Shown: one piece after another, positions 19,287 to 52,847 of the stretch
How the letters are laid out: each line of letters starts with the position of its first letter
How positions within the stretch are numbered: the stretch's first letter is position 1
From: an uncultured Chloroflexia bacterium
Lineage (GTDB): Bacteria > Chloroflexota > Limnocylindria > Limnocylindrales > CSP1-4
Direction: 5' to 3'
Assembly (NCBI GenBank): GCA_963734535.1
Contig: CAVTHS010000011.1
Span: forward strand, 146,894 to 210,893
DNA: 64,000 bases
Position numbers and translations under genes: made by a program
Notes under the pieces: generated by a model
Told to the model about the DNA's origin: nothing
The model's input: the letters and a program-made list of their open reading frames with translations, nothing else
The model's database searches: none

Positions 19287-20471
19287 TCAGCGCGCAGGCG
19301 CCACGATCGTGATCGAGCTGCCGCGCTCCGTGGCGATCATGCTCGCGTCGAGACGGCCGCGGATGGCGCCGGCCTGCAGCGTGAATCCCTCGCCCTCGAT
19401 CCAGGCGTCCGCCCGGCCCAGCTGGCCGTCCGTGAAGATCCAGTACTCGAGCTCGCCCCGCCACCGGTGCAGATCGGCGTCTCCCGCGAGCCAGCGGACC
19501 TGGGGGAAGGCCCGCCGGAAGGTATCGCCGTCGATCGCCAGGCGGCAGTGCCGCGCTCGTGCGCCCTCCACGTATGCGATCCCGATCTCCTCCGCTGCGG
19601 CGCGGGCCTCCGTGTCGAGGGCCTCGCGAAGGACGGCCAGATCGATCGATTCGTCCTCGACGGCCGATCCGGGCACGCTGCCCCAGGAGCCGCCGGGCTC
19701 GCGCAGCCATCCCTGCGTCGCCACGAGCGCGGCCCCACCGAGCCCGAGCGCCCGGACGGTCGCGACCTCGGACGTCCACGAGAAGTCGAGGCCCGCCCGC
19801 GCGCCGCGGACCCGGGCCCCACCTATCGGGCGCAGGTCGATGGAGCCGCTCAGCGTCAGCGAGAGCCGGGCGCTGCTCCCGGCGGTGATGAGCGCGTCAC
19901 AGGTCGGCGGAAGCAGGCTCGGATCGGTGGGTCCGAACTGGGACGACCCCGCGGGCTTCCCGGCGAGGGCCAGGTTGTTCCCGACCGCGACGGACGCCAG
20001 CAGGCTCGCGGTGAAGAGGGCGGTCCCGAGCCCGGCGCCCAGTGATGCCGCCAGCCTGGGCCGACGCGGCGCGCCCGGCCCGAAGACCCGCCTGGCGACG
20101 CCAAGGGCCGCGAAGAGCGAGGTCCCGAGGATCGCCAGGACCCACGGGTAGCCGGCCTCCAGCGATGGAACGAGCGTCTGGAGGCCGGCATCCGCGATCT
20201 GGCGCCAGAGGCTGGCCAGCGAGGGCAGGAGGACCAGGCCCGTTCCCACCGCGAGGCCCCCGATCAGGCGGAACGACTGCGCCCCGTGAGCGGCGGGTGG
20301 CCACACCACCGCCGCCGACGCGATCCCGACCGGCACGAGCAGGGCGACGCCCACGAGGAGGTCGGCGGGTCCGCCGGGCCGGTAGGCCGCCAGGACGAGG
20401 AGGCTCGTGGCGGCCCACAGGGCGGTGAGGCTCGCCGCGAGCAGCCGCATCTCGAAGACCCGGGCGCGCAC
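19287..20471 (-). CDS. Hypothetical multi-TM membrane protein with soluble C-terminal domain
   Basis: About five hydrophobic helices; GTG start 7 nt after TAGACT. Confidence 0.65.
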   Translation of the reverse strand: MRARVFEMRLLAASLTALWAATSLLVLAAYRPGGPADLLVGVALLVPVGIASAAVVWPPAAHGAQSFRLIGGLAVGTGLVLLPSLASLWRQIADAGLQTLVPSLEAGYPWVLAILGTSLFAALGVARRVFGPGAPRRPRLAASLGAGLGTALFTASLLASVAVGNNLALAGKPAGSSQFGPTDPSLLPPTCDALITAGSSARLSLTLSGSIDLRPIGGARVRGARAGLDFSWTSEVATVRALGLGGAALVATQGWLREPGGSWGSVPGSAVEDESIDLAVLREALDTEARAAAEEIGIAYVEGARARHCRLAIDGDTFRRAFPQVRWLAGDADLHRWRGELEYWIFTDGQLGRADAWIEGEGFTLQAGAIRGRLDASMIATERGSSITIVAPAR

Positions 20472-20597
20472 GTCCCCGAGTCTAGCCGAGCATTCACCCG
20501 GCGACGCTCCCGGTAGGACGGCGGGCGCTCCGGAGGGGGCGCTCCGGAGGGGTCGGCCGCTCGGGTACACTCTCGCCGGTCCCGACACGGAGGAGAT

Positions 20598-24523: not shown

Positions 24524-27487
24524 TCAGCCCGGGCCCGGTGCACCGGATCCATCGGCGTCGGCTCCGACAACGTGAAGTCCGCCGCCAGCGCCAGGCCCTC
24601 TGCGGCCGTGGCGATCAGGTCGCGCCCACGTCGCTTGGCCACGAAGCACGCCCGGTCGGCCGCCAGCAGGATCTCGGCATGCGTCGTCCCGTCGGACGGA
24701 TAGGTCGCGACGCCGATCGAGGCGCTCACCAGCGGGGCCGCCATCGAGCCCCGCAAGCCGGCGGGGAAGCTCCCGGAGCACCTGGCGGATCCGGCGCGCG
24801 ACGGCCATTGCGGCCGTCGGCTCGGGGGCCGCCACGATCACGGCGAACTCGTCACCGCCATACCGGAAGACGCGGTCCGAGTCGCGGCCGGCGTCCGAGA
24901 TCGCCCGGGCGATCTGCCGCAGGAGCTCGGTGCCGGCCTCGTGGCCCATCGTCTCGTTGATCTCCTTGAAGTGGTCCAGGTCGAGCATGAGGAGCCCGAA
25001 TCGCTCGTCCGGCATCGCCGGCTCGCTGGAGCCAGGTCCGGAACGTGCCGGCGTTGAGCAGCCCGGTCACCTGGTCGGTCTGGGCTTCGATCTCCTTGAC
25101 GCGGAAGGCAGCCGCGTTGCGGAGGGCGATGGAGACCTGGCCGGCGAAGAGCTGGACGAGCTCGAAGTCATCCTCGTCGAACCGCTCCTCCGACCCGAGT
25201 CGCTCCATCGAGACGACTCCCAACGCGCCGTCCGGGCCGCGCAGCGGGACGCAGATGAGGCTGCCCTCGAGCGGCCCGGTCGTGGGAAACTGGCGCACCC
25301 TGGGGTCGAGAAGCTCGTCGCGGACGAGCTGGGGCTCGCCGTGGGCAACGACCCAGGTCGCAAGCCCTTCCTCGCCCGGCTCCCACGGCTCGAGGTAGGC
25401 GGCCGCGTGCACGCCCCGCGCCAGGACCGGCCGGAGCACCCCGGACTCCGGGGTCGAGCAGCTCGATCGAGATCGTGTCGAGCCGGACGACCGCGCTGAG
25501 GCGGTCGACGACCTGCTCGAGGATCTGCCGCGTCTCGAGCGTTCCGAGGATCGATTCGGTGGTCGCCAGGAGCGCTCGCTGGCTGGCCAGCCGTCGCTCC
25601 AGTCGCGTGGACTGCGCCCGCAGGTGCTCGCTCGTCTCGGCGTTCGCGATCGCCTGCGCGGCGAGGCTGGCGTAGATGACGAGGAGGCGCAGGTCGTCGT
25701 CGGAGAACTGGTGGAGGCCCAGCTTGGAGAGGACGATCACGCCGAGGACCTCGTCCTCGTAGACCATCGGCGCCAGCAGCATCGACTCCTCGAGGTCGTC
25801 TTGCGTGCCCGCGATCGTCTGGGCCCGATCGTCGTTGGCGGCGTCCCCCAGGTTCTGCGGCAGGTTGTTGCGAGCGACCCAGCCCGTGATCCCCTCGCCG
25901 ATCCGGATGCGGAGCAGGTCCGGCGTCTCGTCCTTGAACTCGCCGACGAGCCCGCGCATCGCCACGGGAACGAGCCAGCCGTCCGTCGCGCAGCCGGTAG
26001 ACACGGACGTTGTGGAAGGCGATGAGCGCCTCGAGCTCGTTCGAGATGGCGTCGCCGATCTCCTTCTCGGTGGTGAGGCGCGAGAGCTGCGCGCCGAGCT
26101 GCTGGATCGACTGCAGCTGCGCCGTCCAGGTGGCCATGCGCGCGAACTGCTGGGCGTTCTTCACCGCGGTGGTTGCGTGCGCCGCGAAGCCGGCGAGCGC
26201 CTCGAGCTCCTCCGGATCCCAGCGGTGCGGTCGGTCGTGGCAGATGGTGACGAGTCCCAGTGCGCCGTCGGTGCCCAGGAGCGGCGCGGCGCAGAGCGTC
26301 TCGAAACCCTCCTGGACCACCGCTGCGCGGACCGGCTGCGCCCGCGGGTCGTCCCGGTACCGTTCCGAGAAGAGCGGCCGCTGCTCGGCAAGCAGCCTCC
26401 GTGCGGGGAGCGCCGGAAGCGGAAGGTCACGCGTGGCGGCGAGGTAGCCGGCCGAGAGGCCGCGGCTGGCCTCGGCGGTCATCCGGCCGTCGGCGCCAAG
26501 GAGCGAGGCGGCCGCGCGCTCGGCCCCGAACAGGATGCGGGCGTGGTCGACGACGCCCGCGAGGATCTCGCCGATGTCGAGCGTCCCGCCGAGGTCGATC
26601 GCGATGCGGCGAAGCGCCTCGACGCGGTGGAGCCGGAGCGCCGCGTCGCCGCGCAGCCGTTCCGCATGGATCGCGATGCCGAGCGAGCGGGCAACCGCGG
26701 ACACGAACGCCGTTCGTTCCGGGGGGACCGCCGCGCCTTCGTCGGCCACGAGCAGGACGCCCCACGCATGGTCGTCCGCGTCGCGGATCGGCGCCGCCAC
26801 GCGGGATCGCAGGAGGCTCGCTGATCCTCCGAGCCAGTCCGGGCCGGCGTGACCCGTCTCGGCGACCGGGCTCTCGCCCCGCAGGGCGCGGGCGGGCAGG
26901 CCGTGTGCGTCCGAGAGCGACCCGAGCCGGTCCACGCCCGCCCCACGCGCAGTCCGCGTCACGAGCCGCCCGTCGCGGTGCTCGAGGATCGCGACGAGCC
27001 CGTGCCCCGCGCGGTCGTGCAGGTCGTCCACCGCGGCCCGCATCGCGACATCCGCGTCCGCGTCCGCGACGACGAGGTCGGCGAGCCGGGCGAGGATCGC
27101 GACGTCGGGGCGGGTGCGCGCCGCGGTCCGGTAGCCGGCGTGCGAGGAGGCGATCCGAACGGCGGCCGCCGGGTCGGCGGATGCGCGCTCCGACGGCCGC
27201 GTCCGCTGTTCGACCGTGTCGGCGCCGATCGACGGGGCCACGGGCGCGGCGGAGCTCCGGCCGAGACCGCGGCGCCCGCGGACGGGCTCGCGCTTCGTCT
27301 CCGCCTCGGCGAGGAAGCGCTGGAGGTCACCGAGCCGGTAGCGCCGGTCGCCGCGCTCGTTGATCCGCAGGAACGAGAGCCGCCCCTGGTCGCTCCACGC
27401 CCGGATCGTGTTCGGGTGCACGCCCAGGAGGCGTGCCGCCTTGGTGACCGAGAGCGTGGCGTCCACGGGACGCTTGATCGATGTCAT
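24524..27487 (-). CDS. BldC/MerR-like wHTH, 4x GAF, GGDEF diguanylate cyclase (several frameshifts)
   Basis: SVTKAARLLGVHPNTIRAWSDQG..GDRRY; four GAF-like segments over three ORFs; TDQVTGLLN, DLDHFKEIN, RDSD-5aa-GGDEF, SASIGVA and AKRRGR. Confidence 0.85.
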
Positions 27488-27527
27488 GACGTGTGGTCGC
27501 GACCTTCTCGATGGAGGATTCGTGAAG

Positions 27528-36029: not shown

Positions 36030-37076
36030 ATGGTCGTCCTGGGCGCGGATCTGCACAAGCGGAGTCACACCGTCGTCGTGATCGATGCAACGGGTCGCCA
36101 GCTGGCCGAGAAGACGATCGCCGCGACGGACGCGGGCCACCTCGAGCTCCGCCGCTGGGCGGCGCGATGGCCCGAGCGGCGTGGGCCTCGAGGACTGCCG
36201 CCACCTGTCGCGCCGGCTCGATGCCGAACTCGTCCGGGCCGGTGAGTCGGTCGTCCGGGTCTCGCCCAAGCTGATGGCCGGCGCCCGCCGCTCCGGACGA
36301 GAGCCCGGCAAGAGCGATCCGATCGACGCCCTCGCGGTCGCCCGCGCCGTCCTGCGCGAGCCCAACCTGCCCGTCGCCTCGCTCGACGGCCCCGACCGCG
36401 AGGTGCGTCTCCTCGTCGACCATCGCGAGGATCTCGTCGGCGAGCGGACCCGCCACGAGCAGCGCCTGCGCTGGTTCCTCGTCGAGCTGGCCGTCGCCGA
36501 GCCCGCGCCCCGCTCACTCGGTCGGGCGGTCGTCCAGGCCGCGCTCACGGCGGCGCTCGCCGGTCGCACCGAGCCGGTGGCCCGCTTCGCCCGTGATCTG
36601 CTCGCCCGGATCGTCGAGCTGAGCGCCGCCATCCGCACCCTCGAGCACGAGATCGAGAGCCTGGTCCGAGTCGCGGCGCCGAGACTCCTGGCCTTGCCCG
36701 GCTGCGGCGCCCTGACAGCGGCCAAGATCATCGGCGAGACGGCCGGGATCAGCCGCTTCCGGTCCAAGGAGGCCTTCGCCCGGCACAACGGCACCGCGCC
36801 CAGTCCCGGTCTGGTCGGGCAACGTCGTCCGCCACCGCCTCAACCGGCGGCGGCAACCGCCAGCTCAACGTCGCCCTCCACCGGATCGCCATCACCCAGA
36901 TCCGGCTCGCCGGTCCGGGCAAGGCGTATCTCGAACATCGACACGCCTCGGGTGACACCCGGACCGAAGCCATCCGCGCCCTTCGCCGACGGCTCAGCGA
37001 CGAGGTCTTCCGCCGCCTGCGAGCCGATGAGGCTCTCCGGGCGACCGAGCGGGCCCCGCTCGCGACAGCCGCTTGA
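36030..37076 (+). CDS. IS110 family transposase/recombinase (frameshifts near 36183 and 36803)
   Basis: GADLHKRSH, LEDC, GKSDPIDA, LPGCG..AAKIIGE, HNGTAP..WSG, GGNRQLN and LRRRLSDEVFR. Confidence 0.92.
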
Positions 37077-38506: not shown

Positions 38507-39953
38507 TCAGGGCACCTCGAGGAGAAGCGGTCGCACGCGACCCCACGCGTTCCAGAGCTCGGCGAGCGGCTCTGCCCGACGCCCCAGCAGATCCACCATC
38601 TCGCCCATCGTCAGCCCACCGGCGGACTCCGCGAGGTGGCGTCCCGCTTCGACGCGCACGTCGCGGAACAGCTCCGGCATCTGCGCCTCGCTCGGCCAGC
38701 GACGGATCCGCATCGGGTCCTCGCCCGCGTAGCCGAGCGCGAGCGAGAGGTCGCGCTGGCTGGGCGTCCGTCCGTCGGCGATGCCGCCCATGCCGTCGAA
38801 GCGATAGCCGAGCGCGGCCATGGCCGAGGCGATCTCGCGGCACTGGGTCTGCGTGTAGGGTCCCCAGAAGACGTGGTCGGTCGGGAACGTCAGCGCCGAC
38901 GCGTCGATCGCTCGCGCCACGACCGCGTCGACGAGATCGGAGAGGAGGAGCTGCCATCGGCGCTGCTCGTCCGGGTCGCTGCCCCCGAGGCGTTCCACGA
39001 TCGAACGCATGGTCGCGCGGTCGCCCCGGAGGAGTCGCAGGATCGCGATGTCCTCTCCGGGGGCCGCGGGCAGGCCCGCCATCCCGGCGTCCTCCGAGGC
39101 CAGCCGGCGCGGGGCCGCAGGAGTGACCGGCGCGGGTGGGGCAGACCCGAGGCGCTCCGCCTCCTCGCACTTGCGAGCGCCGTGAGCGCGGCCCGGCTTT
39201 CGTCGGCCGCGTGCTCGCTTCCGATCCGGGCGACGTCCGCGTCGAGGCCCGCCTTCTCGACGGCGCGGAGCAGTTCCGCCTCCACGCTGGCTTCGCGCGA
39301 CATCACGAGCGCCGCCTCGCGGGTCCGTGCGTTGATCCGGTTGATCTCGCGGAGCCAGGCAGCGGCGGCCGCCTCGACGGCCGCCCGGTCCTGTGCTGCG
39401 AGCCGGCTCCGGCGGAACTGCGCCTGGGCCTCGTCCTTCGCGGCGCGAATCGTCCGCGGATCGACCGTCGACGCCGCGCGCTCGCGGCGTCCCGCGTGCT
39501 CGTCGTAGGCGCGTCGCGCCTCGCGCAGTCGCGCGAGCGCTGCCTCGGCGACGGCGCCATCCGGTCCGCGTGCGCGTTCGCCTCGTCGACGGCCGCGCGC
39601 TGCGCCGCGCACGGGTCCACTGCCTCGGCCTGGGCCGCGCCGGGCCCACGCCCGAGGGCCGCCGCACGCATCGGATCCCGGGCCGCCCGCGCCTCCACCC
39701 CCGACCGCCCCGAACGGACGTTCTCGCTCGCGGCCCGTGAGGCCACGACATCGTCCTGCCCTCGCGCCATCTCGAAGGCCAGGAGCGGCGTTGCCAGCGT
39801 CGCGGCGCGACCCCCGGAGGGGCCCGTGGAGATCGTCAGGCGAACCTCGCGCCTGGCCGCCGGGCGTGCCCGGATGATCTCGATGAGGGCGCCACCGGCG
39901 AGCACGCCGAGTGCGAGGCCACCGGCCAGGAAGACGAACTCGCTGGGACTCAC
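38507..39953 (-). CDS. Hypothetical protein: N-terminal TM helix, coiled-coil, globular C-terminal domain (frameshifted)
   Basis: Three protein-like segments in successive frames (SPSEFVFLAGG.., LREARRAYDEH.., FWGPY..LGYRFDG..WNAWGRVRPLL). Confidence 0.6.
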
Positions 39954-40390
39954 GGGACGTTCCTCGGACTGATCCTTGTGGTCGGCGTGACGATCGACGA
40001 GGGACGCGTCTGCGGGTCGAGGGTAGCTGCGCCACGTCGGCGCGTCAATCCGAGCAGGCGCCCGTGCCGAGCCGGCCGAGGCGCCTGCCAGCCTGGAGGA
40101 GGCGAACACCGCAGACCGGGCGCGCCGGCGAGGCGCGGCACGACGCGCAACGGCGCGTCGCGGCCGACGGGAGGGGGCGAAGCACCCGCAGGACCGGGCA
40201 CGCCCGGCGCAGTCGCATGGCCGTCGGAGCGTGGGCCGCCGCACTGCCACGTGGTCCGTGCGTGCGCTCGGGCCCGTCGTCGTGTAGATTCCGGCCCGTC
40301 GATCCCCCCGGCGTCGGCCGGCGCGCACGCCGCGCCGCTTCCGCGCACTCGAGCTCCGGCAGCCGCAGGTACGAACGAGGCGACCGCATC

Positions 40391-42225
40391 GTGGCCATCG
40401 ACCCCAACCAGGAGTTCCTCGTCCAGCCGGTGGACGCGTCGTGGCTCCAGTGCAACATCGAGTGCCAGGAAGCCTGCCCGGTCGGGACGAACTGCCGCGG
40501 CTACCTCAACCTGGCCGCAGAGGGCCGGTTCGAGGAGGGCTACCTCCTCTCGCGCGAGCCGAACCCGGTTGCGGCCATGTGCGCCTACGTCTGCTCGGCA
40601 CCCTGCGAGCGCGCATGCCGACGCGGGGACATCGATCGGCCGCTGGCGATCCGGGCGATGAAGCGCTTCCTCGTCGAGTGGCACGAGGCGTCGGGCATCC
40701 CGGACGTCATCCCGCCGATCACGCCGCGCGACGAGCGCGTCGCCGTGGTCGGCGCCGGGCCGGCGGGCATCGCGGTCGCCCGCGAGCTCGCGGTGAAGGG
40801 CTACCGGGTGACCGTCTTCGACAGCCTGCCCTTCGCCGGCGGCACGATGCTGATCGGCGTCCCAGCCTTCCGCCTGCCGCGCGAAGCGATCGAGATGGAC
40901 GTCCGGCTCGTGGAGCGCCTCGGGGTCACCTTCCGCTACAACACGAAGATCGGGCCGGACATCAGCTTCGAGACGCTGCAGCGCGACTTCGACGGGGTCG
41001 CGATGTGCGCCGGCGCGATGGACCCCGTGGGCTGGACGTCCCTGGCGCCGAGCTGGCCGGCCTTCAGTACGGCGTCGACTTCATGCGCAAGGCCAACCTC
41101 GGCGAGCCGCTCGAGGTGGGCCGCAACGTCGTCGTCGTCGGCGGCGGCTACACGGCCATGGACTGCTCCCGGACGAGCCTCCGGCACGGCGCCGAGAACG
41201 TGACGATCGCCTACCGCCGGACGCGCTCCGAGCTGGTCGTCGACGAGGAGGAGCTGGGCGAGACGGAGCGCGAAGGCGTCCGGATGGAGTTCCTGGTCAG
41301 CCCGATCGAGCTGGTGGGCGAGGACGGGAAGCTCACGGGCGTGCGGTTCATCCGCAACAAGCTCGGCGAGCCCGACGCCTCCGGTCGGCGGTCGCCGGTT
41401 CCGATCCCGGGCTCCGAGTTCGTGGTGCCCGCGGACACGGTCATCCCGGCGGTCTCGCAGGCGGCCGACCTCACCTTCCTGCCCGTGGAGGCGACGTTCG
41501 AGGTCGCCCGCGGTCGCCTCAAGGTGGACCCGGCGACCTACGCGACGAACGTCCGCGGCGTCTTCGCCGCGGGTGACTTCGTGACCGGTCCGGCAACCCT
41601 CATCGAGGCCGCCGGCCACGGCAAGAAGTGCGCCTACGCCATCGACCGCTACCTGGCCGGGCACGTCGACGTCTCGGTGGCCGCCAACGTCAAGATCACG
41701 TCGTCGTGGCGCCACGACATGCCCGAGTACTACGACGTCCTCCCGCGTCAGCACATCCCCATGCTGCCCGTCGAGGCGCGGATGGCGTCGCGCGAGCCGG
41801 AGGTCAACTTCACGACCGGGGTCGAGCTCGGCTACAGCGCCACGCACGCCGTCGCGGATTCCACCCGCTGCCTGATGTGCAACTACAACATCTGGTTCGA
41901 TCCCTTCCGGTGCGTCCTGTGCGGAGCCTGCGCGGACGTCTGCCCGGAGGGCGTGATCCACATGATCGACGTGAACCAGATGAAGTCGGAGGGGTTCCTG
42001 CCGGAGCTCGAGGAGGCGTACGGCTGGGACGAGGGCGCCGCCATGATCCTCGACGAGGAGCGCTGTATCCGCTGCGCGTTGTGTGTCAAGCGTTGCCCGT
42101 TCGACGCCATTACGATGGAGCGGTTCGAGCTCCAGGAGATATCGACCGACGGTCGGCTCTACAAGGAGTCGTACCGGGACGCGCAGCTTGCCGGCACGGC
42201 CGGCGTCGCAGGAGGGGCCAGGTGA
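40391..42225 (+). CDS. GltD/NfnB/DsrL-like NAD(P)H flavo-iron-sulfur oxidoreductase with C-terminal 2x[4Fe-4S] domain (frameshift near 41030)
   Basis: CQEACP and CAYVCSAPCERAC; GAGPAG; GGGYTAMD..YRR; AAGDFVTG; RCLMC; CVLCGACADVCP; CIRCALCVKRCP. Confidence 0.88.
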
Positions 42226-42949
42226 GTTTCCTGGAGCGGGTGGATCAGTCGATCCGGCGGAGCCCCGTCTTCCGGTCCATCTTCCGCAACCCGTACCCCA
42301 ACGACGAGCGGTCGCGGGCGTACGCGGTGATGAACAACGTATTCCTGCACCTGCACCCGGTCCGCGTCCGCCAGCACGCGGTCAAGTTCGCCTACACGTT
42401 CTGCCTGGGCGGGCTGTCGTTCTTCCTGTTCCTCGTGCTGACCGTCACCGGCGTCTACCTGATGTTCTTCTACGCCCCGTCGGCGACGCAGGCGTACTCG
42501 GACATCCTGCGGATCCAGTCCGAGGTGCCGTTCGGGCTCCTGACGCGGAACGTCCACCGGTGGGCCGCCCACCTGATGGTCTTCTTCGTCTTCCTGCACA
42601 TGATGCGGGTCTTCTACCACGGGGCCTACAAGCCGCCACGCGAGTTCAACTGGGTCGTCGGGGTCGTCCTGCTGTTCCTGACCATCTTGCTGAGCTTCAC
42701 CGGCTACCTGCTGCCGTGGGACCAGATCGCCTACTGGGCCATCACGATCGGCGGGAACATGGCCGGCTACGCGCCGCTCTTCAACACGCCGTCGAAGGTC
42801 CTGCTGCTCGCCGGACTGGAGGTCAGCGGCAACACGCTGCTCCGGTTCTACGTGCTCCACATCATGGTCTTCCCGCTCGTCGCGGCGGTGTTCCTGGCGG
42901 TCCACTTCTGGCGGATCCGCAAGGACGGCGGGATAGCGGACCGCTATGA
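42222..42949 (+). CDS. Cytochrome b6-like subunit of a Rieske/cyt b complex (indel near 3' end)
   Basis: FCLGG (heme ci Cys), HRWAAHLM..LHMMRV, FTGYLLPWDQ, H-x14-H in helix D, and the C-terminus GGI/SGPL*. Confidence 0.92.
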
Positions 42950-43076
42950 CGGGCCATCGCGTCGTTGTCGCCTCGCGCCGTACTCGCGCTCCGCACCTCA
43001 GGTGTGGCGCGCTCGCGTGCTCGGCTCCGCCGAGCGCTGACCTCGTCCTGGCGGCCCCGAGGGACGAGGAGTCGCG

Positions 43077-43673
43077 ATGACGGACCAGAAGGCGCCGCCC
43101 GAGCGCCGCGTCGTCCTGCCGGTGGATCCGACCCGGCGGACGGAGATCGACAAGCAGCGCGTGCCGATGTCGGCACGCCCATACCGCCTGCTCGCGCTCG
43201 TCAAGCAGGACGCCGTGGTCCGGGTCCAGAAGGAACCCGACGACACGGTCATGACCTGGCCGCACCTGCTGTCGATCGAGTTCCTGGCGGCAGTCTTCAT
43301 GAGCATCTTCGTCCTGTTCATGGGCCTCTTCGTGAACGCACCGCTCGAGGAGCTGGCCAACCCGAACGTCACGCCGGAGGTCGCCAAGGCCCCGTGGTAC
43401 TTCCTGGGACTCCAGGAGCTGCTGGCCTACTTCCACCCGACCGTCGCGGGCGCCCTCTCGCCCCTCTTCGTGCTGGTCGGCGCGGCGCTCATCCCGTTCG
43501 TCGATCGCGAGAACATCCGGGCCAATCGACCGTCGGATCGCAAGACGGCGGTCGTCCTCTTCACGCTGTTCTGCGCGCTCGGGCTCGTGCTGACGTTCCT
43601 GGGCATCTTCTTCCGCGGTCCCGGGTACGCGTTCACGTTGCCCTGGATCAGCGGATTCCACTTCAGCCTGTGA
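43077..43673 (+). CDS. Cytochrome b subunit IV-like (PetD/QcrC type)
   Basis: TWPHLL..E, APLEELANP..TP, KAPWYFLGLQELL (PEWY-equivalent) and IPFVDR. Confidence 0.88.
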   Translation: MTDQKAPPERRVVLPVDPTRRTEIDKQRVPMSARPYRLLALVKQDAVVRVQKEPDDTVMTWPHLLSIEFLAAVFMSIFVLFMGLFVNAPLEELANPNVTPEVAKAPWYFLGLQELLAYFHPTVAGALSPLFVLVGAALIPFVDRENIRANRPSDRKTAVVLFTLFCALGLVLTFLGIFFRGPGYAFTLPWISGFHFSL

Positions 43674-43680
43674 GCGTCCC

Positions 43681-44353
43681 ATGAGCAACTACCACGTCGA
43701 GCCCGCCAGCAAGCCCCAGGCCCTCACGAGCGAGGCGCTCAAGTCGATGCGCACGGAGGCCCCGAAGGGCCTCTCGCGACGGCAGCTCCTCCGGACGTCG
43801 CTCGGCGCGAGCGTCGGCCTCTGGCTCCTGGAGGTGTCGCGCCGGCACGCATCGGGTTCCTGTGGCCGAACCTGTCGGGCGGCTTCGGCGGGCAAGGTCG
43901 AGATCGGCACGCTCCAGGACATCAAGAACACGAACTCGTCCCTGCCGATCGGGGACGGCTTCCCGGCCTACTACCAGGAGGCCCGGGCCTTCATCATGCT
44001 CGTGGACCCCACCCGCCAGGAGTTCGTCCCCGGCGAGGATCGCTCCGGCGACGGCACGGCGCTCAACGTCCGCGCGCTCTACCAGCGCTGCCCGCACCTG
44101 GGCTGCAAGCCGAACTTGTGCCTGAAGAGCTTCTGGCTCGAATGCCCGTGCCACGGCTCGCGCTACGATCGCCTGGGGACGAAGGTCAAGGAGCTGGGGC
44201 CGGCGCCGCGCTCGATGGACCGGTTCGCCGTGATCGTCCAGGCCGACGGGAAGCTCGTCCTCGACACCAGCAAGATCACGCTCGGGCCGCTGCCGGTGGC
44301 GCTCGGCCAGCCCGGGCCTCATCCCGTCGAAGAGCTCGACCGGCTGCATCTGA
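43681..44353 (+). CDS. Rieske 2Fe-2S subunit (indels near 43837-43885 and 44315)
   Basis: Tat motif SRRQLL; CPHLGC and CPCHGSRY boxes; GPAPRSMDRF. Confidence 0.9.
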
Positions 44354-44384
44354 GCCGACCGATGACCACGACCCGAGAACCCCG

Positions 44385-45520
44385 ATGACCGACCAGCCCG
44401 GCGCAGCGCCCGGAGGAGCGCCTGCCCGTCCCGCGCGAGCCGTCCGAGGTCGCCCGGGAGGGCGTGCGGCGACGGGTCGTTCGGCGACCGATCGCCGCCG
44501 ACCGAGCGGTTCACCGCGCACCCGACCGCGCATCGCGTCGGGCTCTCGCCGGAGCGCGCCGCGAAGATCGTCACCCAGAGCGCCAGCGCCCGCTGGGTCG
44601 CCTTCCTCGCCGTCTCGATCGTCGCGCTCTTCGTGATCGTCTACTACTTCTACGACCTGGGCGTGCCCGGCGTGGCGAACACCAGCCGCCTCGAGAAGGA
44701 GGTCGCGGTCCAGCAGGTCACCGACGTGACGGCCGGCTACAAGCTCTTCGAGGCGAACTGCGCGCGCTGCCACGGCGCCCAGGGGCAGGGCGGGATCGGG
44801 CCGGTCCTCAACGACCAGGCGAAGCTCCTCACCCACCTGACGCCGAAGTACCTGACGACGGTCCTGACGGTCGGCGGCCGGTACGTCTGCGGCGACGCCG
44901 CCTCGCTGATGCCGGCCTGGCTCGAGCCCAACGGCCCGCTCAACTACCGCGACGTCGAGGAGCTCGTCGCGTTCATCCGGGCGCCGTCGACGACTCGAGT
45001 TCCAGGGAGTCGACCCGGCGACCGGCCTGATCACCACGCTGAACGGCTGGCGCGACCCGGCCTTCGCGCCCGCCCCGGGCTCCACGCCGGTCCCGAACTG
45101 CTGGAAGGACGCCTTCGCGTCCTCCGTCGGCCGCCCCGAGCGCGGGGGCGAGCGGCGCTCCGGCCGAGCGGCGCCCCGAGCGCGGCACCCTCGGGTAGCC
45201 CGGCCGCCTCGCCCGCCGCGTCGGGCGGCGCGGCCGGCACGGTCCTCGAGCTCACGGCCTCCGGCATCGCGTTCGACAAGGCCGACCTGACCGCCCCGGC
45301 CGGGGTCGCCTTCCAGATCAAGTTCACCAACAACAACGCGGGGATCCCCCACAACGTCGCGATCCACAAGGACTCGCCGACCGGCGAGATCGTCTGGCAG
45401 GGCGAGATCTTCAGCGGGGTCGACAGCCGGACCTACGACGTCCCGGCGCTTCCCGCGGGGACCTACGGCTTCTCGTGCATCGTCCACCCGAACATGACGG
45501 GGACGCTCACGGTCAAGTAG
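44385..45520 (+). CDS. Membrane-anchored cytochrome c fused to a C-terminal cupredoxin (frameshifted)
   Basis: TM helix; CARCH heme motif and LMPAW Met ligand; Ser/Ala/Pro linker; type-1 Cu ligands PHNV...CIVHPNM. Confidence 0.82.
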
Positions 45521-45572
45521 CGGGGCGCGGCCGCCGGGCGGGAGGTCCCGCGGTCGCGTGCAGGGAGGACAG

Positions 45573-47090
45573 ATGGCGGAACAGGCGCTCGGTCCAGGCG
45601 GCAGGGTGGCGCGCAGGCGGGCCTTCTTCGGGCTGCTCGACGCGAACGGCTGGGGCTGGGCGGGCGTCAAGGCCGCGGTCTGGTTCGTCCTCATCATCAT
45701 GCTCATGGCGTACCTGCCCGGACCGCGCGCTCTACGCCACGGTCCAGAACACGATCGACCTCGGCGTCTCGCTCAAGGTGTTCAACCCGGCCCTCGACCT
45801 GACCCCGATCAGCTTCTGCCCCGCCTCGAACCGGAGCGTGCCGTGCCCGGCTCCCGCCGGGACGGTCCTGCCATGGGAGCCGAACCCGGCCGAGCTGCTC
45901 TTGCCGGCGCCGCGCGCGCGGACGCAGCGATCGTCGGGGCCGGCCTCCAGACGCTCCTGGTCGGCGGCACGGACGGGAAGACGGCCCAGGCGAGCGTCTT
46001 CGCGACCGTCATCCGGCCGGACGGCAACATCGACGCGTGGAGCCGAGGGCGCACGCCCTGCCGGCGCCGCGCGCCCAGGCATCGGCCGTCTTCTTCTCCG
46101 GCGTCGCGTACGTCATCGGCGGGGTCGACGCGGGCGGCGCGCCGACCGACACCGTCTTCGCGGGCACGCCGGACGCGGCGACCGGCAAGATCGCGGCCTG
46201 GGCCGAAATCGACGGACCTGAAGCTGCCCGCGCCCGCGCGCCGGGGCCGCGGTCGTGGTCGCCGGCGATGGGGTCTTCCTCATCGGCGGGACCGACGGGA
46301 AGGGGCCGGTCGACACCGTCTGGAAGGCGACGCTCGACGCGAAGAGCGGCAAGCTGAAGGCGTGGGTGCCCAACGCGCCGCTCACCTCGTTCGACGCGGC
46401 CGGGGCCGCCGCAGCCGGCGCCGCGCGTCCACGCCATCGCCGACGCTCATCGGCCAGAACCTCTTCGTGTGGGGCGGCGAGGACGCGGCGGGCCCGACCA
46501 CGCACATCCTCCGAGGCGACGTCTCCGTCGCCAAGGAGACGCTCGGGCGAGGTGACCCGGTGGGCGAGCCCGACCGCTGCGTCCGCCGCGCAGCAGGATC
46601 TCCCGGCCGCTCACCTGGGCGCATTCGGCTGGGTGGCCAACGGCAACCTCTACTACGCGGGCGGCGATGGCGCCAACGGCGAGGTGATCTGGGCGATCCC
46701 GGACGCGGCCGGCAACATCACGGGCTGGAAGCACCTGGCCGCGAGCGATCTCCCGCCCGACCTCGCGCTCCGCGACTCGGCGCCCGATCGTCTCGGGCTC
46801 GCACGTCTTCCTCGTCGGCGGCCTCGCGCAGGGCAACCCGACGACCGGGACGGCGCGGGCGGACCTCGCGCCGAAGGCGCCGTTCTTCCAGCTCGGCCTC
46901 TTCTACATCGTGGTCCCGGCGATGGGGATCCAGGGCGAGGTCGGCCAGCAGCTCTCCTACCTGGTCGCCGCCGGCGTGGCGACCGGCAGACTTCGTGCTC
47001 CTCCTGCTGATCGGCTACGCGTTCAACCACAAGGAGCGAACGCGGGCGTTCCTGCAGGATCTGCGCAACCGACGGCGCCGGACCGCCTGA
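45573..47090 (+). CDS. Membrane protein with Kelch-like beta-propeller (multiple frameshifts)
   Basis: TM helices at both ends; repeated hhhGG motifs (LLVGG, YVIGG, FLIGG, FVWGG, YYAGG, FLVGG). Confidence 0.65.
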   Translation: MAEQALGPGGRVARRRAFFGLLDANGWGWAGVKAAVWFVLIIMLMAYLPGPRALRHGPEHDRPRRLAQGVQPGPRPDPDQLLPRLEPERAVPGSRRDGPAMGAEPGRAALAGAARADAAIVGAGLQTLLVGGTDGKTAQASVFATVIRPDGNIDAWSRGRTPCRRRAPRHRPSSSPASRTSSAGSTRAARRPTPSSRARRTRRPARSRPGPKSTDLKLPAPARRGRGRGRRRWGLPHRRDRREGAGRHRLEGDARREERQAEGVGAQRAAHLVRRGRGRRSRRRASTPSPTLIGQNLFVWGGEDAAGPTTHILRGDVSVAKETLGRGDPVGEPDRCVRRAAGSPGRSPGRIRLGGQRQPLLRGRRWRQRRGDLGDPGRGRQHHGLEAPGRERSPARPRAPRLGARSSRARTSSSSAASRRATRRPGRRGRTSRRRRRSSSSASSTSWSRRWGSRARSASSSPTWSPPAWRPADFVLLLLIGYAFNHKERTRAFLQDLRNRRRRTA

Positions 47091-47154
47091 CGGGAGCGTC
47101 ACCCTTCGCCGGGGGAGGGCTCCGGCCGGTCGTGAGCGTTGGCTGGCCGACGGG

Positions 47155-47556
47155 TCAGCCGGCCCCGCCATCCCCGGGCGCGTCGCCCTCGCCGGGCGCG
47201 AGCGGCCCCCGCCGAACCTCGAGCCCGGCCCGCTCCCAGGCGTCCATGCCGCCGGCCACGTTCCAGGCGTCGGCCCAGCCGTTGCGGAGGAGGAACGCGG
47301 TCACCGCCGCGGAGCGGTTGCCCGTGTGGCAGATGACATGGAGAGGGCGGTCCCGGGGAAGCTCCTCGAAGTGGGCCAGGAAGGTCGAGGTCGGATAGAG
47401 GAGCGCGCCCGGGACGCGGACGGCGACGAACTCGTGCCGCTCGCGCACGTCGAGCAGGATCGGCGCGGACTGCCCTGCCGGGGTGCCGACGCCCCCTGCG
47501 CGGGCCGCGTCGGCGTCGACCGCGCTGATCGTCGGGAGCGGGCCCTGGGGCTGCAT
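47155..47556 (-). CDS. Rhodanese-like domain protein
   Basis: LLDVRERHEF, ICHTGNRS and NVAGGMDAW. Confidence 0.9.
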   Translation of the reverse strand: MQPQGPLPTISAVDADAARAGGVGTPAGQSAPILLDVRERHEFVAVRVPGALLYPTSTFLAHFEELPRDRPLHVICHTGNRSAAVTAFLLRNGWADAWNVAGGMDAWERAGLEVRRGPLAPGEGDAPGDGGAG

Positions 47557-48733: not shown

Positions 48734-50066
48734 TCACCAGCCTGGCAGCAGCTGCCGGTCCAGCCACTCCGCCGGCTCCATGCGCGGCCGGATCAGGGAC
48801 GATCTCCCGCCGCTGATCGCGACCTCGGCCGGGATCGGGTGGCTCAGGAACAGCGGCATCGACTCGGTGAAGCCGTACGCACCCGTGTCGAGCACGGCGA
48901 CGAGGTCGCCGACGGCCGGTGCGGGCAGCCGTGCGTTGGCCGCGAAGATGTCCAGCCCGGAGCAGAGCGGCCCGGCGATGGTGACCGGCCACGAGCGAGC
49001 GGCCCGTGCGCTGGCTCCAAGGATTCGCACCCGGTGCTCCTGCCCGACGAGAGCCGGCCGGACCAGGTGATGGACGCCTCCGTCGAGGATGGCCACCTCT
49101 GCCTCGCCGACACGCTTGCGGTCGACGACCCGCGCGACATACGCACCGGCGGTCCCCACGAGCCAGCGGCCGGGCTCCAGCAGCAGCCGGAGGTTGCGCA
49201 GGCCCGGCGTGGTCGCCCAGCCCTCCGCGACCGACGCCACGCGGCGCCCGAAGCCGGCCACGTCGAGCGACTCCTCGTTGGGCTCGTATGGGATCCCGAG
49301 GCCACCGCCCGCGTCCACGAGGCGAAGCTCCACCCGGGCGTGCCCGGCCACCGCCCGCGCCAGCTGCACCGTCTCGGCGACGTGAGCCGCCAGGCGGCTC
49401 GCGTCGAGGACGTTCGACGCGCCGAAGCGGTGGATCCCGAGCAGCTCCAGGTGGGACGACCGGGCGGCCGTCCGCGCCGCCGCCCGCAGGTCCGGCTCGT
49501 CCATGCCGAACTTCCCGGCCCCATCGTCGCCGACGAGCCGGACTCGCTCCAGGCCGTCGGCCATCCCGACGGACGCCCGCAGGAGGATCGGGCACCCGCC
49601 TGCCCGCGGCTGACGCGGTCGCCTCGAGGCGGTCGAGCTCGCCCGGCAATTCGACCGTGATCGCGCGCACGCCGGCCGCGACGGCATCGCGCAGCTCCGC
49701 GTCACGCTTGCCGGGGCCCGTGACGACGATCCGGTCCTCGGGGATGCCCGCCCGGCGCGCGGTGGCGAGCTCGCCGCCGGAGGCGACGTCCGCGCCGAGC
49801 CCGAGGGAGCCGAGGTGGGCGACGATCGCGAGCGCCGGGTTGGCCTTGACCGCGTACGCGATCTCGACGAATGGCGGCAGGGCCGCCCGCAGCGTCTCGA
49901 CCTGGCGCTCGATCACGTCGAGGTCGTAGACATGGAACGGCGTGCCGTACAGCGCCGCGAGGTCGGCCGGGTCGAGCCCGCCCAGCCGGTCGCCCCGCAG
50001 GATCTCGTTGCGGGCCGGCGGCCGCCCGCGCCGCGGCGCGTCGATGCCCGGGGCCGGCGTCGTCAT
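48734..50066 (-). CDS. lysA: Diaminopimelate decarboxylase-like fold-III PLP enzyme (frameshift near 49605)
   Basis: GTPFHVYD, YAVKAN, DVASGGEL, KFG, DAGGGLG, EPGR, GPLC and TGAYG; last gene of the dap operon. Confidence 0.78.
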
Positions 50067-50959
50067 CGGAGCGCGTCCTCCAGCGCGACCCGCGCGTCGG
50101 TGCGGGCGTCACGCTGCTTCACGATGAGGGCGACCTGCCCACCGAGCCCGTGCTCCCCCGCGAACTCGCCCGGGAGCGAGCGCGTTCCCGGCACGACGAC
50201 GGCGCCCGGCGGCACGCAGAGGGGCGCGTCGGGCGTCCCGGCCAGGACCCGCTCGCCGACGAGGTCGTACAGGCGCGACGTCCCCGTCAGCGTGACCCCC
50301 GCAGCCAGGACCGCGCCCCGCCCGACCAGCACGCCGTCGAGCAGCAGGCAGCCCGCGCCGACGAACGCATCGTCCTCGATGATCACGGGCCGCGCACCGG
50401 CAGGCTCCAGGACGCCGCCCACCATGACCCCCGCCGAGAGGTGGACGCGCGCCCCGACCTGGGCGCACGAGCCGACGAGCACGTGCGAGTCGACCATCGT
50501 GTCGGTCCCGATCCAGGCGCCGACGTTCACGTACGACGGTGGCATCAGCACGACGCCGGGCTCGAGGTGCGCGCCCGCCCGGATCGACGTCCCACCGGGC
50601 ACGATCCGCCACGGCCGACCGGCGGCCGTCGCGGCCCGCGCATCCGGGGAATCCGTGACGTCCTTCGGGGGCAGGCCGACCCGATCCACGAACCCGAACG
50701 TCTCGCCGGCGGACCACCGCCGGGTGGCGCGGTCGGCGAAGAGCGCCAGGATGGCGGCGCGCGCGCCGGGGTCGAGCCCCCAGCCGCCAGCCGCCCCGGA
50801 ATCCGGCGCTGCCGCCCGGAGGCTCCCCGACTCGAGGGCGGCGATGACCTCGTCCGCTGCCTGGGCCGCGGACGCTGCCACCGTCGCCGCGGCCGTCGCC
50901 GGCGTCCCGGCAGCAGGGGCCGAATCCCCCGCTGCCGCGGCACGGCTGCCCGCGCTCAT
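50063..50959 (-). CDS. dapD: Tetrahydrodipicolinate N-succinyltransferase
   Basis: RIVPGG, MPPSYVNVGA, MVDSHVLVGSCAQVG and GGVLEP..PVIIED. Confidence 0.9.
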   Translation of the reverse strand: MSAGSRAAAAGDSAPAAGTPATAAATVAASAAQAADEVIAALESGSLRAAAPDSGAAGGWGLDPGARAAILALFADRATRRWSAGETFGFVDRVGLPPKDVTDSPDARAATAAGRPWRIVPGGTSIRAGAHLEPGVVLMPPSYVNVGAWIGTDTMVDSHVLVGSCAQVGARVHLSAGVMVGGVLEPAGARPVIIEDDAFVGAGCLLLDGVLVGRGAVLAAGVTLTGTSRLYDLVGERVLAGTPDAPLCVPPGAVVVPGTRSLPGEFAGEHGLGGQVALIVKQRDARTDARVALEDALR

Positions 50960-51945
50960 GCCGCCCCCTCGACCGCCATCACGGCCTCCGGCAGTGCCCG
51001 GCCACCGGGGAGCTCAAGGAGGCCGAGCGAGCGGAGCAGGTGCGCCAGTCGCTCACGGGCGTCGTCGTCGAGCGGAAGGAGCGGCCGCCGGACTGCGTCG
51101 GTGGCGAGCCCCATGAGGGCGAGCGCCGCCTTGACCGGGACCGGGTTCGGGGCGCCCCGGAAGTTGGCCAGCATGAGCGGCAGCCACCGCTCGTGGATCC
51201 GCCGGGCATGCTCCCAGTCGCCGGCCCCGGCGGCCGCGCACAGCGCGGCCATCTCGCCGGGGATCTCGTTCGAGGCGACCGAGATGACGCCGTTCCCGCC
51301 CAGCGCGAGGATCGGCAGGGTCCAGGCGTCGTCGCCGGCCAGGACGGCCACGTCCCGCGGCCGCTCGCGGCAGATCCGCGCGATCTGCTCGAGGTTCCCG
51401 GAGGCCTCCTTGACGGCCACGATCCGCGGGTGCGCGGCCAGCCGCAGGAACGTGTCCGCCTCCACGTTCGTGCCGGTCCGCGACGGGACGTTGTAGACGA
51501 CCACGGGCAGCCCGCCCTCGTCGGCGACGGCCCGGAAGTGGCTCTCCAGCATCCGCTGGTCCGGACGGTTGTAGTACGGGGCCACGACGAGGGCCGCGTC
51601 CGCGCCGAGCTCGGCGGCTCGCCGGGTTGCGCGGATCGTCGCGTCCGTGTCGTTCGTGCCGGTGCCGGCGACGATCGTCACGCGCCGGCGCGACGGGCGT
51701 GAGGCCGCCACCTCGACGGTGATCGCGATCAGGCGCTCGCGTTCCGCCTGGCTGAGGGTCGGGGCCTCGCCGGTGGTCCCGCACGGGACGAGGCCGTCGA
51801 TCCCGGAGAGGACCTGCCAGCTGACGAGGCGACGGAAGGCGTTCTCGTCGAGCGCGCCGTCCGGCGTGAACGGCGTGACGAGGGCGGTGAATGCGCCACG
51901 GAGGGCTGGGCGGGCGCGGCCGGGGGAGCGGGCGATGGGGGTCAT
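50956..51945 (-). CDS. dapA: 4-hydroxy-tetrahydrodipicolinate synthase
   Basis: ALVTPF, CGTTGE, PYYN, YNVPSRTG, KEASG, GDD and NPVPVK. Confidence 0.95.
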   Translation of the reverse strand: MTPIARSPGRARPALRGAFTALVTPFTPDGALDENAFRRLVSWQVLSGIDGLVPCGTTGEAPTLSQAERERLIAITVEVAASRPSRRRVTIVAGTGTNDTDATIRATRRAAELGADAALVVAPYYNRPDQRMLESHFRAVADEGGLPVVVYNVPSRTGTNVEADTFLRLAAHPRIVAVKEASGNLEQIARICRERPRDVAVLAGDDAWTLPILALGGNGVISVASNEIPGEMAALCAAAGAGDWEHARRIHERWLPLMLANFRGAPNPVPVKAALALMGLATDAVRRPLLPLDDDARERLAHLLRSLGLLELPGGRALPEAVMAVEGAA

Positions 51946-52013
51946 CGGTGGGTTCCTTTCGAAGGGTCGCGGGGAGGGGAGTCGGCGCGGTCGGGGTCGA
52001 CCGGGTCGCGGCG

Positions 52014-52776
52014 TCAGCTGGCAGCGGTCACCTCCATGCCGCTCGTCGACCTCGAGGACGGCCTCGAACGGGTGGAGGCCTGCCGATCGGGGCTCGGCGA
52101 GGAGCCAGTCGACGGCCGCAGCGACGCCCGAGGCGCAGGCGCCCCGGTCGCGGGCGGTCAGCGTCAGCTCGATCGTCTCGCCGGGGCCGTCGAAGCCCAC
52201 GAGGTGCCGGCCCGGGTTCGTGCCCGCCCGCACCCCGACGACCTCGAGGGTTCCCGTCTCGGCGGGACCGTCGGCCGGGGTGGAGACGCGATCGCGCGCG
52301 GGGTCGACCGCGAGGATGCGCCGTGCGAGGTCGCGAGCCGTGCCCGACGGACGGTCGGCCTTCCCGTGCCGGTGCCACTCGACGATGTACGGCTCGTAGC
52401 CCGGGAGTCGCGCCGTGAGCCGTGCGGCCATCTCCGCGAGCTGCGCGAAGACGAGCGCGCCCGGGCTGAAGTTGGACGCGGCGACCGCGGACGCGCCGCG
52501 CGCGCGCAGCAGCTCTGCGACGGCGCGCCGGTCGGCTTCCCAGGCCGTGGTGGCGATCGCGAACCGACGGACGCCGCCCTCGACGGCGGCCGCGACGTTG
52601 CCGAGGACCGAATCGCCGCGCGACGCGTCGACGACGACGTCCACTCCCGCGAAGGCGGCGGGGTCGTGCCCGCCCGCCGCCGGGCGACCGGCGAGCCGGA
52701 CGGCCATGCCGCGTGCCCCGAGGGCGTCGGCGACCGCCCGTCCGAACGGGCCATCGCCCAGGATCAGTGTCTGCAT
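52014..52776 (-). CDS. dapB: 4-hydroxy-tetrahydrodipicolinate reductase (indel near 3' end fuses it to dapA in the ORF track)
   Basis: ATT, ASNFS, EWHRHGKADRPSGTA, RAG..PGRH and ARDR. Confidence 0.85.
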
Positions 52777-52847
52777 CGTGGTGTCCTCCGCGTCTGTTGC
52801 CATCACGCGGGTCCGCCGGGGAGAGAGGGTCGGTTCGCCGTCGGGCG

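Follow-up and report, generated by a model that had tools for sequence, protein, structure and literature searches.

What does a soluble NAD(P)(H) oxidoreductase do at the head of an operon for a membrane-bound Rieske/cytochrome b complex? The question is raised by six co-directional genes at 40391-47090 on the + strand of a 64,000-nt stretch of DNA (contig CAVTHS010000011.1, assembly GCA_963734535.1; G+C ~73%), hereafter called the window, which encode in order an oxidoreductase, a cytochrome b6, subunit IV, a Rieske protein, a cytochrome c-cupredoxin fusion, and a Kelch protein. They come from a Chloroflexota bacterium of soil or freshwater, class Limnocylindria; by homologue search, genome scan, and tree, the closest relatives of the window oxidoreductase belong to Chloroflexota metagenome-assembled genomes (MAGs) with Limnocylindria/Limnocylindrales labels. 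We read the locus, with a probability of roughly 0.6, as a respiratory complex III of the Rieske/cytochrome b6-subunit IV type with an extra cytoplasmic flavo-iron-sulfur (flavo-FeS) NAD(P)(H) oxidoreductase, a kind that has already been described. The pairing itself is not new, having been reported for subfamily G cytochromes b by Dibrova et al. and Kartal et al., according to passages of PMC5600118. What is new here is the Limnocylindria variant, in which a heme-ci motif occurs together with two lineage-specific additions, a Kelch membrane protein and the cytochrome c-cupredoxin fusion.

The operon and its relatives

The operon is laid out as follows (aa, amino acids; L010 is a related locus).

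40391-42225, + strand: NfnB/GltD-like oxidoreductase, 611 aa if read through; GTG start at 40391, TGA stop at 42223-42225
42210-42215 and 42222-42225, + strand: AGGAGG ribosome-binding site and GTGA, in which the oxidoreductase stop overlaps the cytochrome b start; the AGGAGG is 7 nt upstream
42222-42949, + strand: cytochrome b6-type subunit, 242 aa in relatives (Pfam Cytochrome_B, 8e-44)
43077-43673, + strand: subunit IV, 198 aa (Cytochrom_B_C, 2e-8)
43681-44353, + strand: Rieske [2Fe-2S] protein (Pfam Rieske; CPHLGC...CPCHGSRY)
44385-45520, + strand: membrane-anchored mono-heme cytochrome c (CARCH) fused to a cupredoxin (type-1 copper), 345 aa in L010 (Cupredoxin_1, 3e-8)
45573-47090, + strand: Kelch-repeat beta-propeller with transmembrane segments at both ends (498 aa in L010); ATG at 45573

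An earlier reading of this DNA, made from the letters alone (the sequence-only reading), had listed these six genes in these places and had pointed out the GTGA overlap; Pfam matches and translation motifs agree with the former, and the latter is present together with its AGGAGG. The first gene does encode, as was claimed, GltD/NfnB-type Cys clusters, FAD and NADP motifs, RCLMC, and a 2x[4Fe-4S] domain. Its Pfam matches are Fer4_20 (4.6e-15), Pyr_redox_2 (6.8e-17)/NAD_binding_8, and two C-terminal Fer4 motifs, and the domain order is 2x[4Fe-4S] (Fer4_20), FAD and NAD(P) Rossmann domains, a linker in which PRQ..P is conserved, and RCLMC followed by a 2x[4Fe-4S] ferredoxin domain. GGGYTAMD and YRR are also found in the translation, and the protein has no transmembrane segment.

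The split, b6-type cytochrome b described in the sequence-only reading is likewise evident in the translation, with four His ligands, the heme-ci Cys in FCLGG, and helix-D histidines 14 residues apart, preceded by an n-side N-terminal extension of ~60 residues that bears Arg22 and His43. Subunit IV has an N-terminal extension of similar length (~60 residues), three predicted helices, and the motif AKAPWYFLGLQE (PEWY-type; APWY). The Rieske protein has an RRQLL twin-arginine anchor and carries the Ser/Tyr pair (CPCHGSRY), and the cytochrome c-cupredoxin fusion substitutes for cytochrome f/c1. The Kelch assignment drew a single weak Pfam match in the window, and it is through the clear Kelch repeats of the intact orthologue at L010 that it holds; in the ESM Atlas this protein matched Chloroflexota Kelch clusters only, with no functional lead.

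Synteny in relatives, the absence of which would by the sequence-only reading have refuted its inference, was surveyed by scanning one genome per species with peptide patterns taken from an alignment of 10 full-length oxidoreductases alone. At least 617 stretches matched the patterns and 459 relatives were confirmed; the best 80 of these served as loci for a tblastn search with the window proteins. Cytochrome b follows the oxidoreductase on the same strand, at a distance of 0-948 nt, in 71 of the 80 loci, or 71 of the 74 that are assessable, the sequence of the other six ending at most 630 nt past the oxidoreductase. The three assessable loci that lack it (L039, L076, and L077) fall in a basal four-row clade of a FastTree tree of 70 oxidoreductases plus the homologue P0001, and the other 67 rows form one starred clade of this tree, which carries long-branch warnings. 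Rieske comes last (oxidoreductase-cytochrome b-subunit IV-Rieske) at 23 loci, from Chloroflexota, two Actinomycetota, and a bin with a Steroidobacteraceae label, and directly after the oxidoreductase (oxidoreductase-Rieske-cytochrome b-subunit IV) at 46, from Acidobacteriota, Ignavibacteriota, Bacteroidota, Nitrospirota, Thermodesulfobacteriota, and Verrucomicrobiota; two further cytochrome b-linked loci gave no Rieske match by tblastn. Both orders keep the oxidoreductase first, the adjacency spans at least seven phyla, and a 4-nt stop/start overlap with the next gene was seen, using heuristic start calls, in 26 of 68 related loci. The survey thus does not refute the sequence-only reading, and we conclude that the pairing of the oxidoreductase with Rieske/cytochrome b genes is real, widespread, and often translationally coupled. 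Two labels disagree with the tree: L019 ('Steroidobacteraceae') lies inside a Limnocylindria clade and L028 ('Limnocylindrales') inside Acidobacteriota, with the Acidobacteriota gene order. Both are likely mis-binned contigs.

Family alignments comprised 70 of 75 called oxidoreductase open reading frames (ORFs; four were dropped on length or coverage and one had an internal stop), 60 of 67 cytochromes b (without five long fused forms and two short calls), and 50 of 62 subunit IV calls. The heme ligands H112, H126, and H213 are present in all 60 cytochromes b and H228 in 59, and the window has the same residues. Arg22 and His43 of the N-terminal extension are invariant (60/60), as is APWY in subunit IV (50/50). 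The CLGG heme-ci motif is confined to 21 of the 60 cytochromes b, all from the Limnocylindria-type clade; the other 39 read YLG[TASMG], GLG[VG], or RLGF, with YLG[TAS] being the Acidobacteriota type. A long form of cytochrome b (428-510 aa), apparently fused with subunit IV, occurs at L051, L056, L065, L072, and L075, the other members being split.

The core of the module is thus the oxidoreductase with Rieske, cytochrome b, and subunit IV, and its p-side partners vary:

L043 (Ignavibacteriota), 13903-20176: two cytochromes c, then COX1, FixO, and FixG (cbb3-type oxidase)
L056 (Thermodesulfobacteriota), 14108-20485: four cytochromes c, then COX1
L075 (Nitrospirota MAG), 7871-14101: directly after the module, a molybdopterin enzyme, Fer4_11, an EB_dh heme subunit, and a NarJ-like chaperone
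L071 (Actinomycetes): a 725-aa multi-sulfocyanin protein
L021, L053, and L072 (Terriglobia, Cytophagia, and Opitutaceae): multi-domain cytochromes c

Because the module precedes c-type cytochromes and cbb3-type oxidase genes at L043 and L056, we assign it a respiratory role. The clusters at these two loci resemble a quinol-to-oxygen gene set, and the genes after the module at L075 together make up an Nxr/Nar-like set. In the closest Limnocylindria clade, a cytochrome c gene is followed by the Kelch gene; a second Limnocylindria clade has a diheme cytochrome c and a ~195-aa ORF without a family, and no Kelch gene. Cupredoxin matches with the window query were obtained at L010 and L070 only, and Pfam places a cupredoxin domain in L010 but, at E <= 1e-3, in neither cytochrome c ORF of L006 and L008. 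Window pieces of the Kelch gene matched 6 of the 80 loci (Pfam Kelch in all three of those ORFs tested), and among the loci surveyed the gene is confined to the closest (Limnocylindrales) relatives.

With the C-terminal 401 aa of the oxidoreductase as query, 8000 candidates were scored, and 3708 proteins matched at E <= 1e-3. The best 120 of these 3708 are 75-96% identical (all but one at least 84%) and mostly 611 aa long, and three of them are named 'Candidatus Limnocylindrales'; P0001 is 96% identical over the 401 aa. The wider family has 22819 representatives at E <= 1e-3, within which the Limnocylindria clade is isolated (50% identity to the representative P0124 and ~40% to the rest). A sequence search of the PDB gave as best matches 9n5u_A 'NfnA' (1e-108, query 20-567), 9bov_A/9bp5 (5e-108), and 8oh5_C, with further matches to NfnB (4ylf_B, 5jca_L), to GltD (2vdc_G among NfnB/GltD-family entries), and to DPD; the C-terminal domain also matches FwdF (5t5i_F, 2e-12). 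An AlphaFold2 model of the L010 oxidoreductase (predicted local distance difference test, pLDDT, 86.6; predicted TM-score, pTM, 0.87; tail 590-611 disordered) returned as its top three Foldseek matches NfnABC of Caldicellulosiruptor (9bov_A), StnABC (8oh5_C), and Thermococcus NfnABC (9n5u_A). The closest solved kin of the oxidoreductase are therefore the NfnB-like NADP(H) end-modules of NfnABC/StnABC, in which the homologous module is the NADP(H) site according to the PDB entry titles. The best NCBIfam model, PRK12771, scored 421 bits, below its cut-off of 516. No Pfam family of an NfnA or GltB partner is present in the operon flanks, where the neighbours are the bc-complex genes.

At the end of nucleotide-binding strand beta2, YRR is present in 24 of 70 family members and [LI]E in 46. 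YRR is of the type seen in NADPH-binding GltD/NfnB, and from these proteins and the Rossmann rule we take YRR and [LI]E to reflect preferences for NADPH and NADH, respectively. The last ~22 residues (…YRDAQLAGTAGVAGGAR; residues 590-611, L010:11731-11794; window ~42157-42222) have a pLDDT below 50, and this disordered tail ends exactly at the cytochrome b start codon. It could be a docking tail.

Broken reading frames

The sequence-only reading was right about gene content and passed silently over the frames, which are not continuous: at least 18 frameshifts interrupt the 6.7 kb of the six-gene operon. They were mapped by a plot of G+C at third codon positions (GC3) by frame, by three-frame translation, and by alignment, with frameshifts allowed, of the intact proteins of L010 to the window, which gave 17 breaks. 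DNA-level alignment to four relatives was unreliable in the divergent 3' genes, where the protein-guided alignment was used instead. The breaks are:

~41031, oxidoreductase: one frameshift, a 1-nt deletion (frame 2 to frame 1)
~42935, cytochrome b: one further break, a 1-nt deletion (DNA alignment to relatives and frame check)
43840, 43850, 43890, and 44311, Rieske: four frameshifts, 1-nt insertions
~44485, 44996, 45111, and 45163, cytochrome c-cupredoxin: four frameshifts
45717 to 46985, Kelch: eight frameshifts

Correction changes several gene ends. The true stop of cytochrome b is at 42947-42949, with SGPL* in frame 2, the ending seen in relatives (the assembled ORF runs to 43040); the Rieske stop moves from 44388, where the ORF as assembled ends, to ~44351-44353; and the start of the cytochrome c gene is ATG 44385 instead of 44633.

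Breaks in such number, concentrated in the Rieske, cytochrome c, and Kelch genes, might suggest a decaying pseudogene cluster in which the 18 frameshifts are real mutations. We hold this to be very improbable, and read the breaks as presumed assembly errors, because relatives are intact, other genes of the window are also split, and GC3 is retained. All six genes are uninterrupted at L010, and intact 611-aa orthologues of the oxidoreductase exist at 85-96% identity. The GC3 frame plot switches frame within genes, but each piece retains a GC3 of ~0.9 or more. The oxidoreductase and cytochrome b are still ~85-87% identical to their L010 counterparts (532/610 and 204/242 codons identical) and subunit IV 82% (163/199), with the Rieske (72%), cytochrome c (55%), and Kelch (52%) proteins of the 3' part being more divergent; tblastn with the window proteins gave 86-88% for the oxidoreductase and 60-82% for cytochrome b, subunit IV, Rieske, and cytochrome c. 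In the Rieske gene, three +1 events within 50 nt bring the frame back. Finally, the housekeeping gene lysA (48737-50051, - strand) is split, its Orn_Arg_deC_N match falling in one frame for profile positions 2-103 and in another for 106-246, and a GAF/GGDEF regulator (24758-27496, - strand) is spread over at least four frame segments. Indels are thus not confined to the operon and look assembly-wide.

Direction of electron flow

In the mechanism that we consider, the soluble oxidoreductase would bind the cytochrome b dimer from its n-side and exchange electrons with the n-side hemes (bH and heme ci) through its four FeS clusters, FAD, and NADP(H); an additional heme, possibly held by His43 of both cytochrome b monomers, may join this path. 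On the p-side, a Rieske center of predicted high potential would pass electrons to cytochrome c, from there to the fused cupredoxin, and on to a terminal oxidase. Quinol oxidation at Qo would be bifurcated, with the downhill electron entering the high-potential chain and so paying for the second, which would pass from the b hemes along the FeS wire to reduce NADP+. This is Kartal's proposal for anammox bacteria carried over to an aerobe.

Parts of the scheme have been proposed for the anammox complexes, and the background that the sequence-only reading gave on these and on the association of ferredoxin-NADP+ reductase (FNR) with b6f is indeed in print (PMC12954380 and PMC5600118, in the passages available). 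According to sections of PMC12954380, NAD(P)H formation by bifurcation is proposed for the anammox complexes, whose Rieske potentials are +303 and +335 mV against ~ -70 mV for menaquinone-7, the Ser/Tyr pair tuning the Rieske center to ~ +300 mV; AlphaFold3 models there show a linear wire of heme, four FeS clusters, and FAD, plus an extra heme b on His43 of Kuste4571. The window His43 matches it by residue number. Flavin-based bifurcation of NADPH between quinone and ferredoxin was dropped as a lead idea because these published models, as presented in that part of the paper, give a single linear wire.

Our tentative preference is for quinol-driven NADP+ reduction by bifurcation, a direction argued by analogy: the Ser/Tyr pair of the Rieske protein predicts, from the anammox case, a high potential and hence a strong high-potential branch, YRR suggests NADP(H), and the related module of NfnABC/StnABC is an NADP(H) site. 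Several observations pull the other way, against either this direction or the complex as a whole. The association of the oxidoreductase with the complex is drawn from gene context and from analogy with the anammox complexome as cited in passages of PMC5600118. None of 12 longer oxidoreductase homologues scanned with Pfam is fused to cytochrome b or Rieske, their extras being a response-regulator, rubredoxin-like, 2Fe-2S, or additional ferredoxin domain, or an unassigned N-terminus. In the cytochrome b monomer model (pLDDT 71.7 overall), residues 33-46, which include His43, are below 50. The CxGG motif of the window, which in b6f lies at the quinone-reducing Qi site, may mean that a normal Q cycle competes; [LI]E in 46 of 70 members hints at NADH in other clades; and reverse electron flow meets no evident need in the hosts, which resemble aerobic heterotrophs. 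A complex prediction (cytochrome b dimer, two copies of subunit IV 1-95, oxidoreductase 425-611, and two 4Fe-4S clusters) scored 0.22 and 0.15 against a mark of 0.32 and weighs neither way.

Electrons could also run in the opposite direction, the flavoprotein oxidizing NAD(P)H and feeding the FeS wire, heme ci/bH, and finally quinone at Qi, as an NDH-2-like input into complex III that is likened to ferredoxin/FNR-driven cyclic flow at b6f. This is the direction taken in the sequence-only reading, whose link from NADP(H) to the Qi site is one of two that fit the data. Such a flow would be thermodynamically downhill and require no gating, and NADPH oxidation is the normal activity of GltD-type modules. 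The CLGG motif of the window and of the 21 Limnocylindria-type cytochromes b would provide its entry point, and the FNR-b6f association (Zhang 2001, as cited in a passage of PMC5600118) offers a parallel. Yet it would leave unused the large high-potential driving force predicted from the Rieske Ser/Tyr pair, YRR would suggest NADPH rather than the catabolic carrier NADH, and the 39 cytochromes b without the ci cysteine are nevertheless encoded with the oxidoreductase; therefore ci/Qi is not a general coupling point. We regard this direction as somewhat unlikely in itself, although nearly as likely as NADP+ reduction. It is also conceivable, but in our judgment improbable, that the oxidoreductase is a soluble co-transcribed enzyme (a ferredoxin/NADPH oxidoreductase or a redox sensor) and not a subunit. 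The lack of a transmembrane segment and of fusion proteins would fit such an enzyme, as would the 3 of 74 assessable loci whose oxidoreductase relatives stand without cytochrome b. It would be harder to reconcile with an adjacency that persists in 71 of those loci and survives rearrangement of gene order, with the frequent stop/start overlaps, with an n-side extension of cytochrome b that has invariant residues of its own, or with the anammox homologues, which are reported within complexes expressed in Kuenenia (de Almeida 2016, as cited in passages of PMC5600118).

Returning to NADP+ reduction by a complex III, we can extend the proposal, though with considerable doubt, to the suggestion that, in abundant aerobic phyla of soil and freshwater (Limnocylindria, Acidobacteriota, Ignavibacteriota, and others), flavoprotein-bearing complexes III may serve as the main quinol:cytochrome c/cupredoxin oxidoreductases and would make NAD(P)H directly from quinol by Qo bifurcation through a His43 inter-monomer heme and the four-cluster wire. 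If true, this would amount to a respiratory 'quinol-driven transhydrogenase' mode, so far proposed for anammox bacteria only. The role of oxidoreductase-bearing Rieske/cytochrome b complexes has been studied almost only in those bacteria, and the window and its 71 syntenic relatives put the module in ordinary-looking respiratory operons of widespread aerobic phyla, some beside cbb3-type oxidase genes. The gain from the window alone is modest; the wider distribution raises the ecological weight of the question of function.

Surroundings of the operon and comparison with known systems

Elsewhere in the window, Pfam matches mark the following genes:

6126-7505, - strand: sulfite-oxidase-like molybdopterin oxidoreductase (Oxidored_molyb, 7e-45)
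14265-16709, - strand: cytochrome bd oxidase genes cydA (Cyt_bd_oxida_I, 8e-150) and cydB (4e-106)
36229-36780, + strand: IS110-family transposase fragment (DEDD_Tnp_IS110, Transposase_20) inside a long spurious ORF, ~3.6 kb upstream of the operon

The presence of cydAB indicates that the host has a second quinol oxidase branch, which bypasses complex III, and the sulfite-oxidase-like molybdoenzyme may donate electrons, in the periplasm, to the cytochrome c/cupredoxin pool. Genes for thiamine and lysine biosynthesis are also encoded. A single 616-aa ORF at 50956-52806 (- strand) contains a DHDPS (dapA) Pfam domain at 51019-51927; its N-terminal part is dapB-like by eye, with no Pfam family at 52495-52716, and it is either a true fusion or the product of a stop lost in an error-prone assembly. 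A promoter/terminator scan of 39800-47500 gave no signal exceeding shuffled expectation. The sequence-only reading saw no photosynthesis or anammox genes, and none of the photosynthesis, anammox, or dsr families matched among the 60 window segments that we scanned; the novelty that this implied is weak, the pairing outside anammox bacteria being reported in passages of PMC5600118.

Our literature search found no paper describing the operon in Limnocylindria and no further description of the complex in aerobes. The operon goes unmentioned in the available part of the Limnocylindria paper PMC13212565, and the parts of PMC3578206 and PMC5220378 that could be consulted hold nothing relevant.

Among known systems, the window oxidoreductase had been called DsrL-like. 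The DsrL layout consists of 2x[4Fe-4S], FAD, NAD(P), and a C-terminal 2x[4Fe-4S] ferredoxin domain, and the likeness extends to this domain order only; kinship does not bear it out, the nearest relatives being the NfnABC/StnABC modules, with no dsr genes among the 60 window segments and no DsrL-named model in the best 25 NCBIfam matches. To NfnABC/StnABC (Bfu-family) the resemblance is closer. It covers Fer4_20, FAD, NAD(P), and the following ferredoxin domain (query 20-569), and the Fer4_20 and FAD and NAD(P) Rossmann domains of the NfnB/GltD small subunit are all present by Pfam. There, however, the module forms one domain of a soluble subunit of ~950-1180 aa beside HydBC-like partners, whereas in the window it is a free-standing 611-aa protein encoded beside membrane bc genes.

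For cytochrome b, the best NCBIfam match is ExtP of the Geobacter selenite/tellurite operon (291.4 bits, cut-off 290), but ExtQ does not reach its cut-off (46.2 versus 150). Like the b6f complex with FNR of cyanobacteria and chloroplasts, the window has a split b6/subunit IV, a heme-ci Cys, the 14-residue helix-D spacing, a cytoplasmic-side NADP(H) flavoprotein, and, in relatives of its cytochrome b, a ...RKDGGISGPL C-terminus. It differs in lacking cytochrome f and the small Pet subunits, in a b6 NCBIfam score of 199 bits (cut-off 325), in the extra N-terminal extension of cytochrome b, and in a flavoprotein that is of the NfnB/GltD type with four FeS clusters and not a plant-type FNR.

Subfamily G cytochromes b (Dibrova 2013/2017), exemplified by Ktedonobacter racemifer, Ilumatobacter, Solibacter, Methylomirabilis, and the Geobacter ExtP type, are close in kind. 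Passages of PMC5600118 (Dibrova 2017) state, citing Kartal 2011/2013 and Dibrova 2013, that these short cytochromes b co-occur with large Cys-rich NAD(P)-binding FeS proteins, and that an updated tree shows such proximity 'in many other cases', beyond anammox bacteria; in its supplement, PF07992 is counted 26 times among the domains of cytochrome b neighbourhoods, and Ktedonobacter racemifer, Ilumatobacter coccineus, and Solibacter usitatus appear in the alignment that includes Methylomirabilis DAMO_0768, the clade-G member that it names. The window shares the short cytochrome b, a subunit IV with P-WY, and the CxGG of some members (CMGG in the supplement for Brocadia and Ktedonobacter), this comparison being one of resemblance to the supplement's alignment blocks. 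Limnocylindria are not named in those passages or supplement rows.

The anammox complexes of Kuenenia (Kuste4569-4574 and Kustd1480-1485), compared here by their descriptions and shared structural relatives, likewise encode a FAD/NAD(P)/multi-FeS subunit together with Rieske, a short cytochrome b with the heme-c(n) motif, and subunit IV. The solved relatives of the oxidoreductase are the same, since 9bp5 (NfnABC) and 5t5i (FwdF) are reported as structural relatives of Kuste4570 in a section of PMC12954380, and the Ser/Tyr pair of the Rieske protein is also shared; a His numbered 43 in the cytochrome b N-terminus of both is a putative further match. The window differs in having neither multiheme or HAO-like cytochromes nor an anammoxosome. 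Its p-side consists instead of a mono-heme cytochrome c-cupredoxin and a Kelch membrane protein, and its host is a Chloroflexota bacterium that also carries, within the window, a cytochrome bd oxidase.

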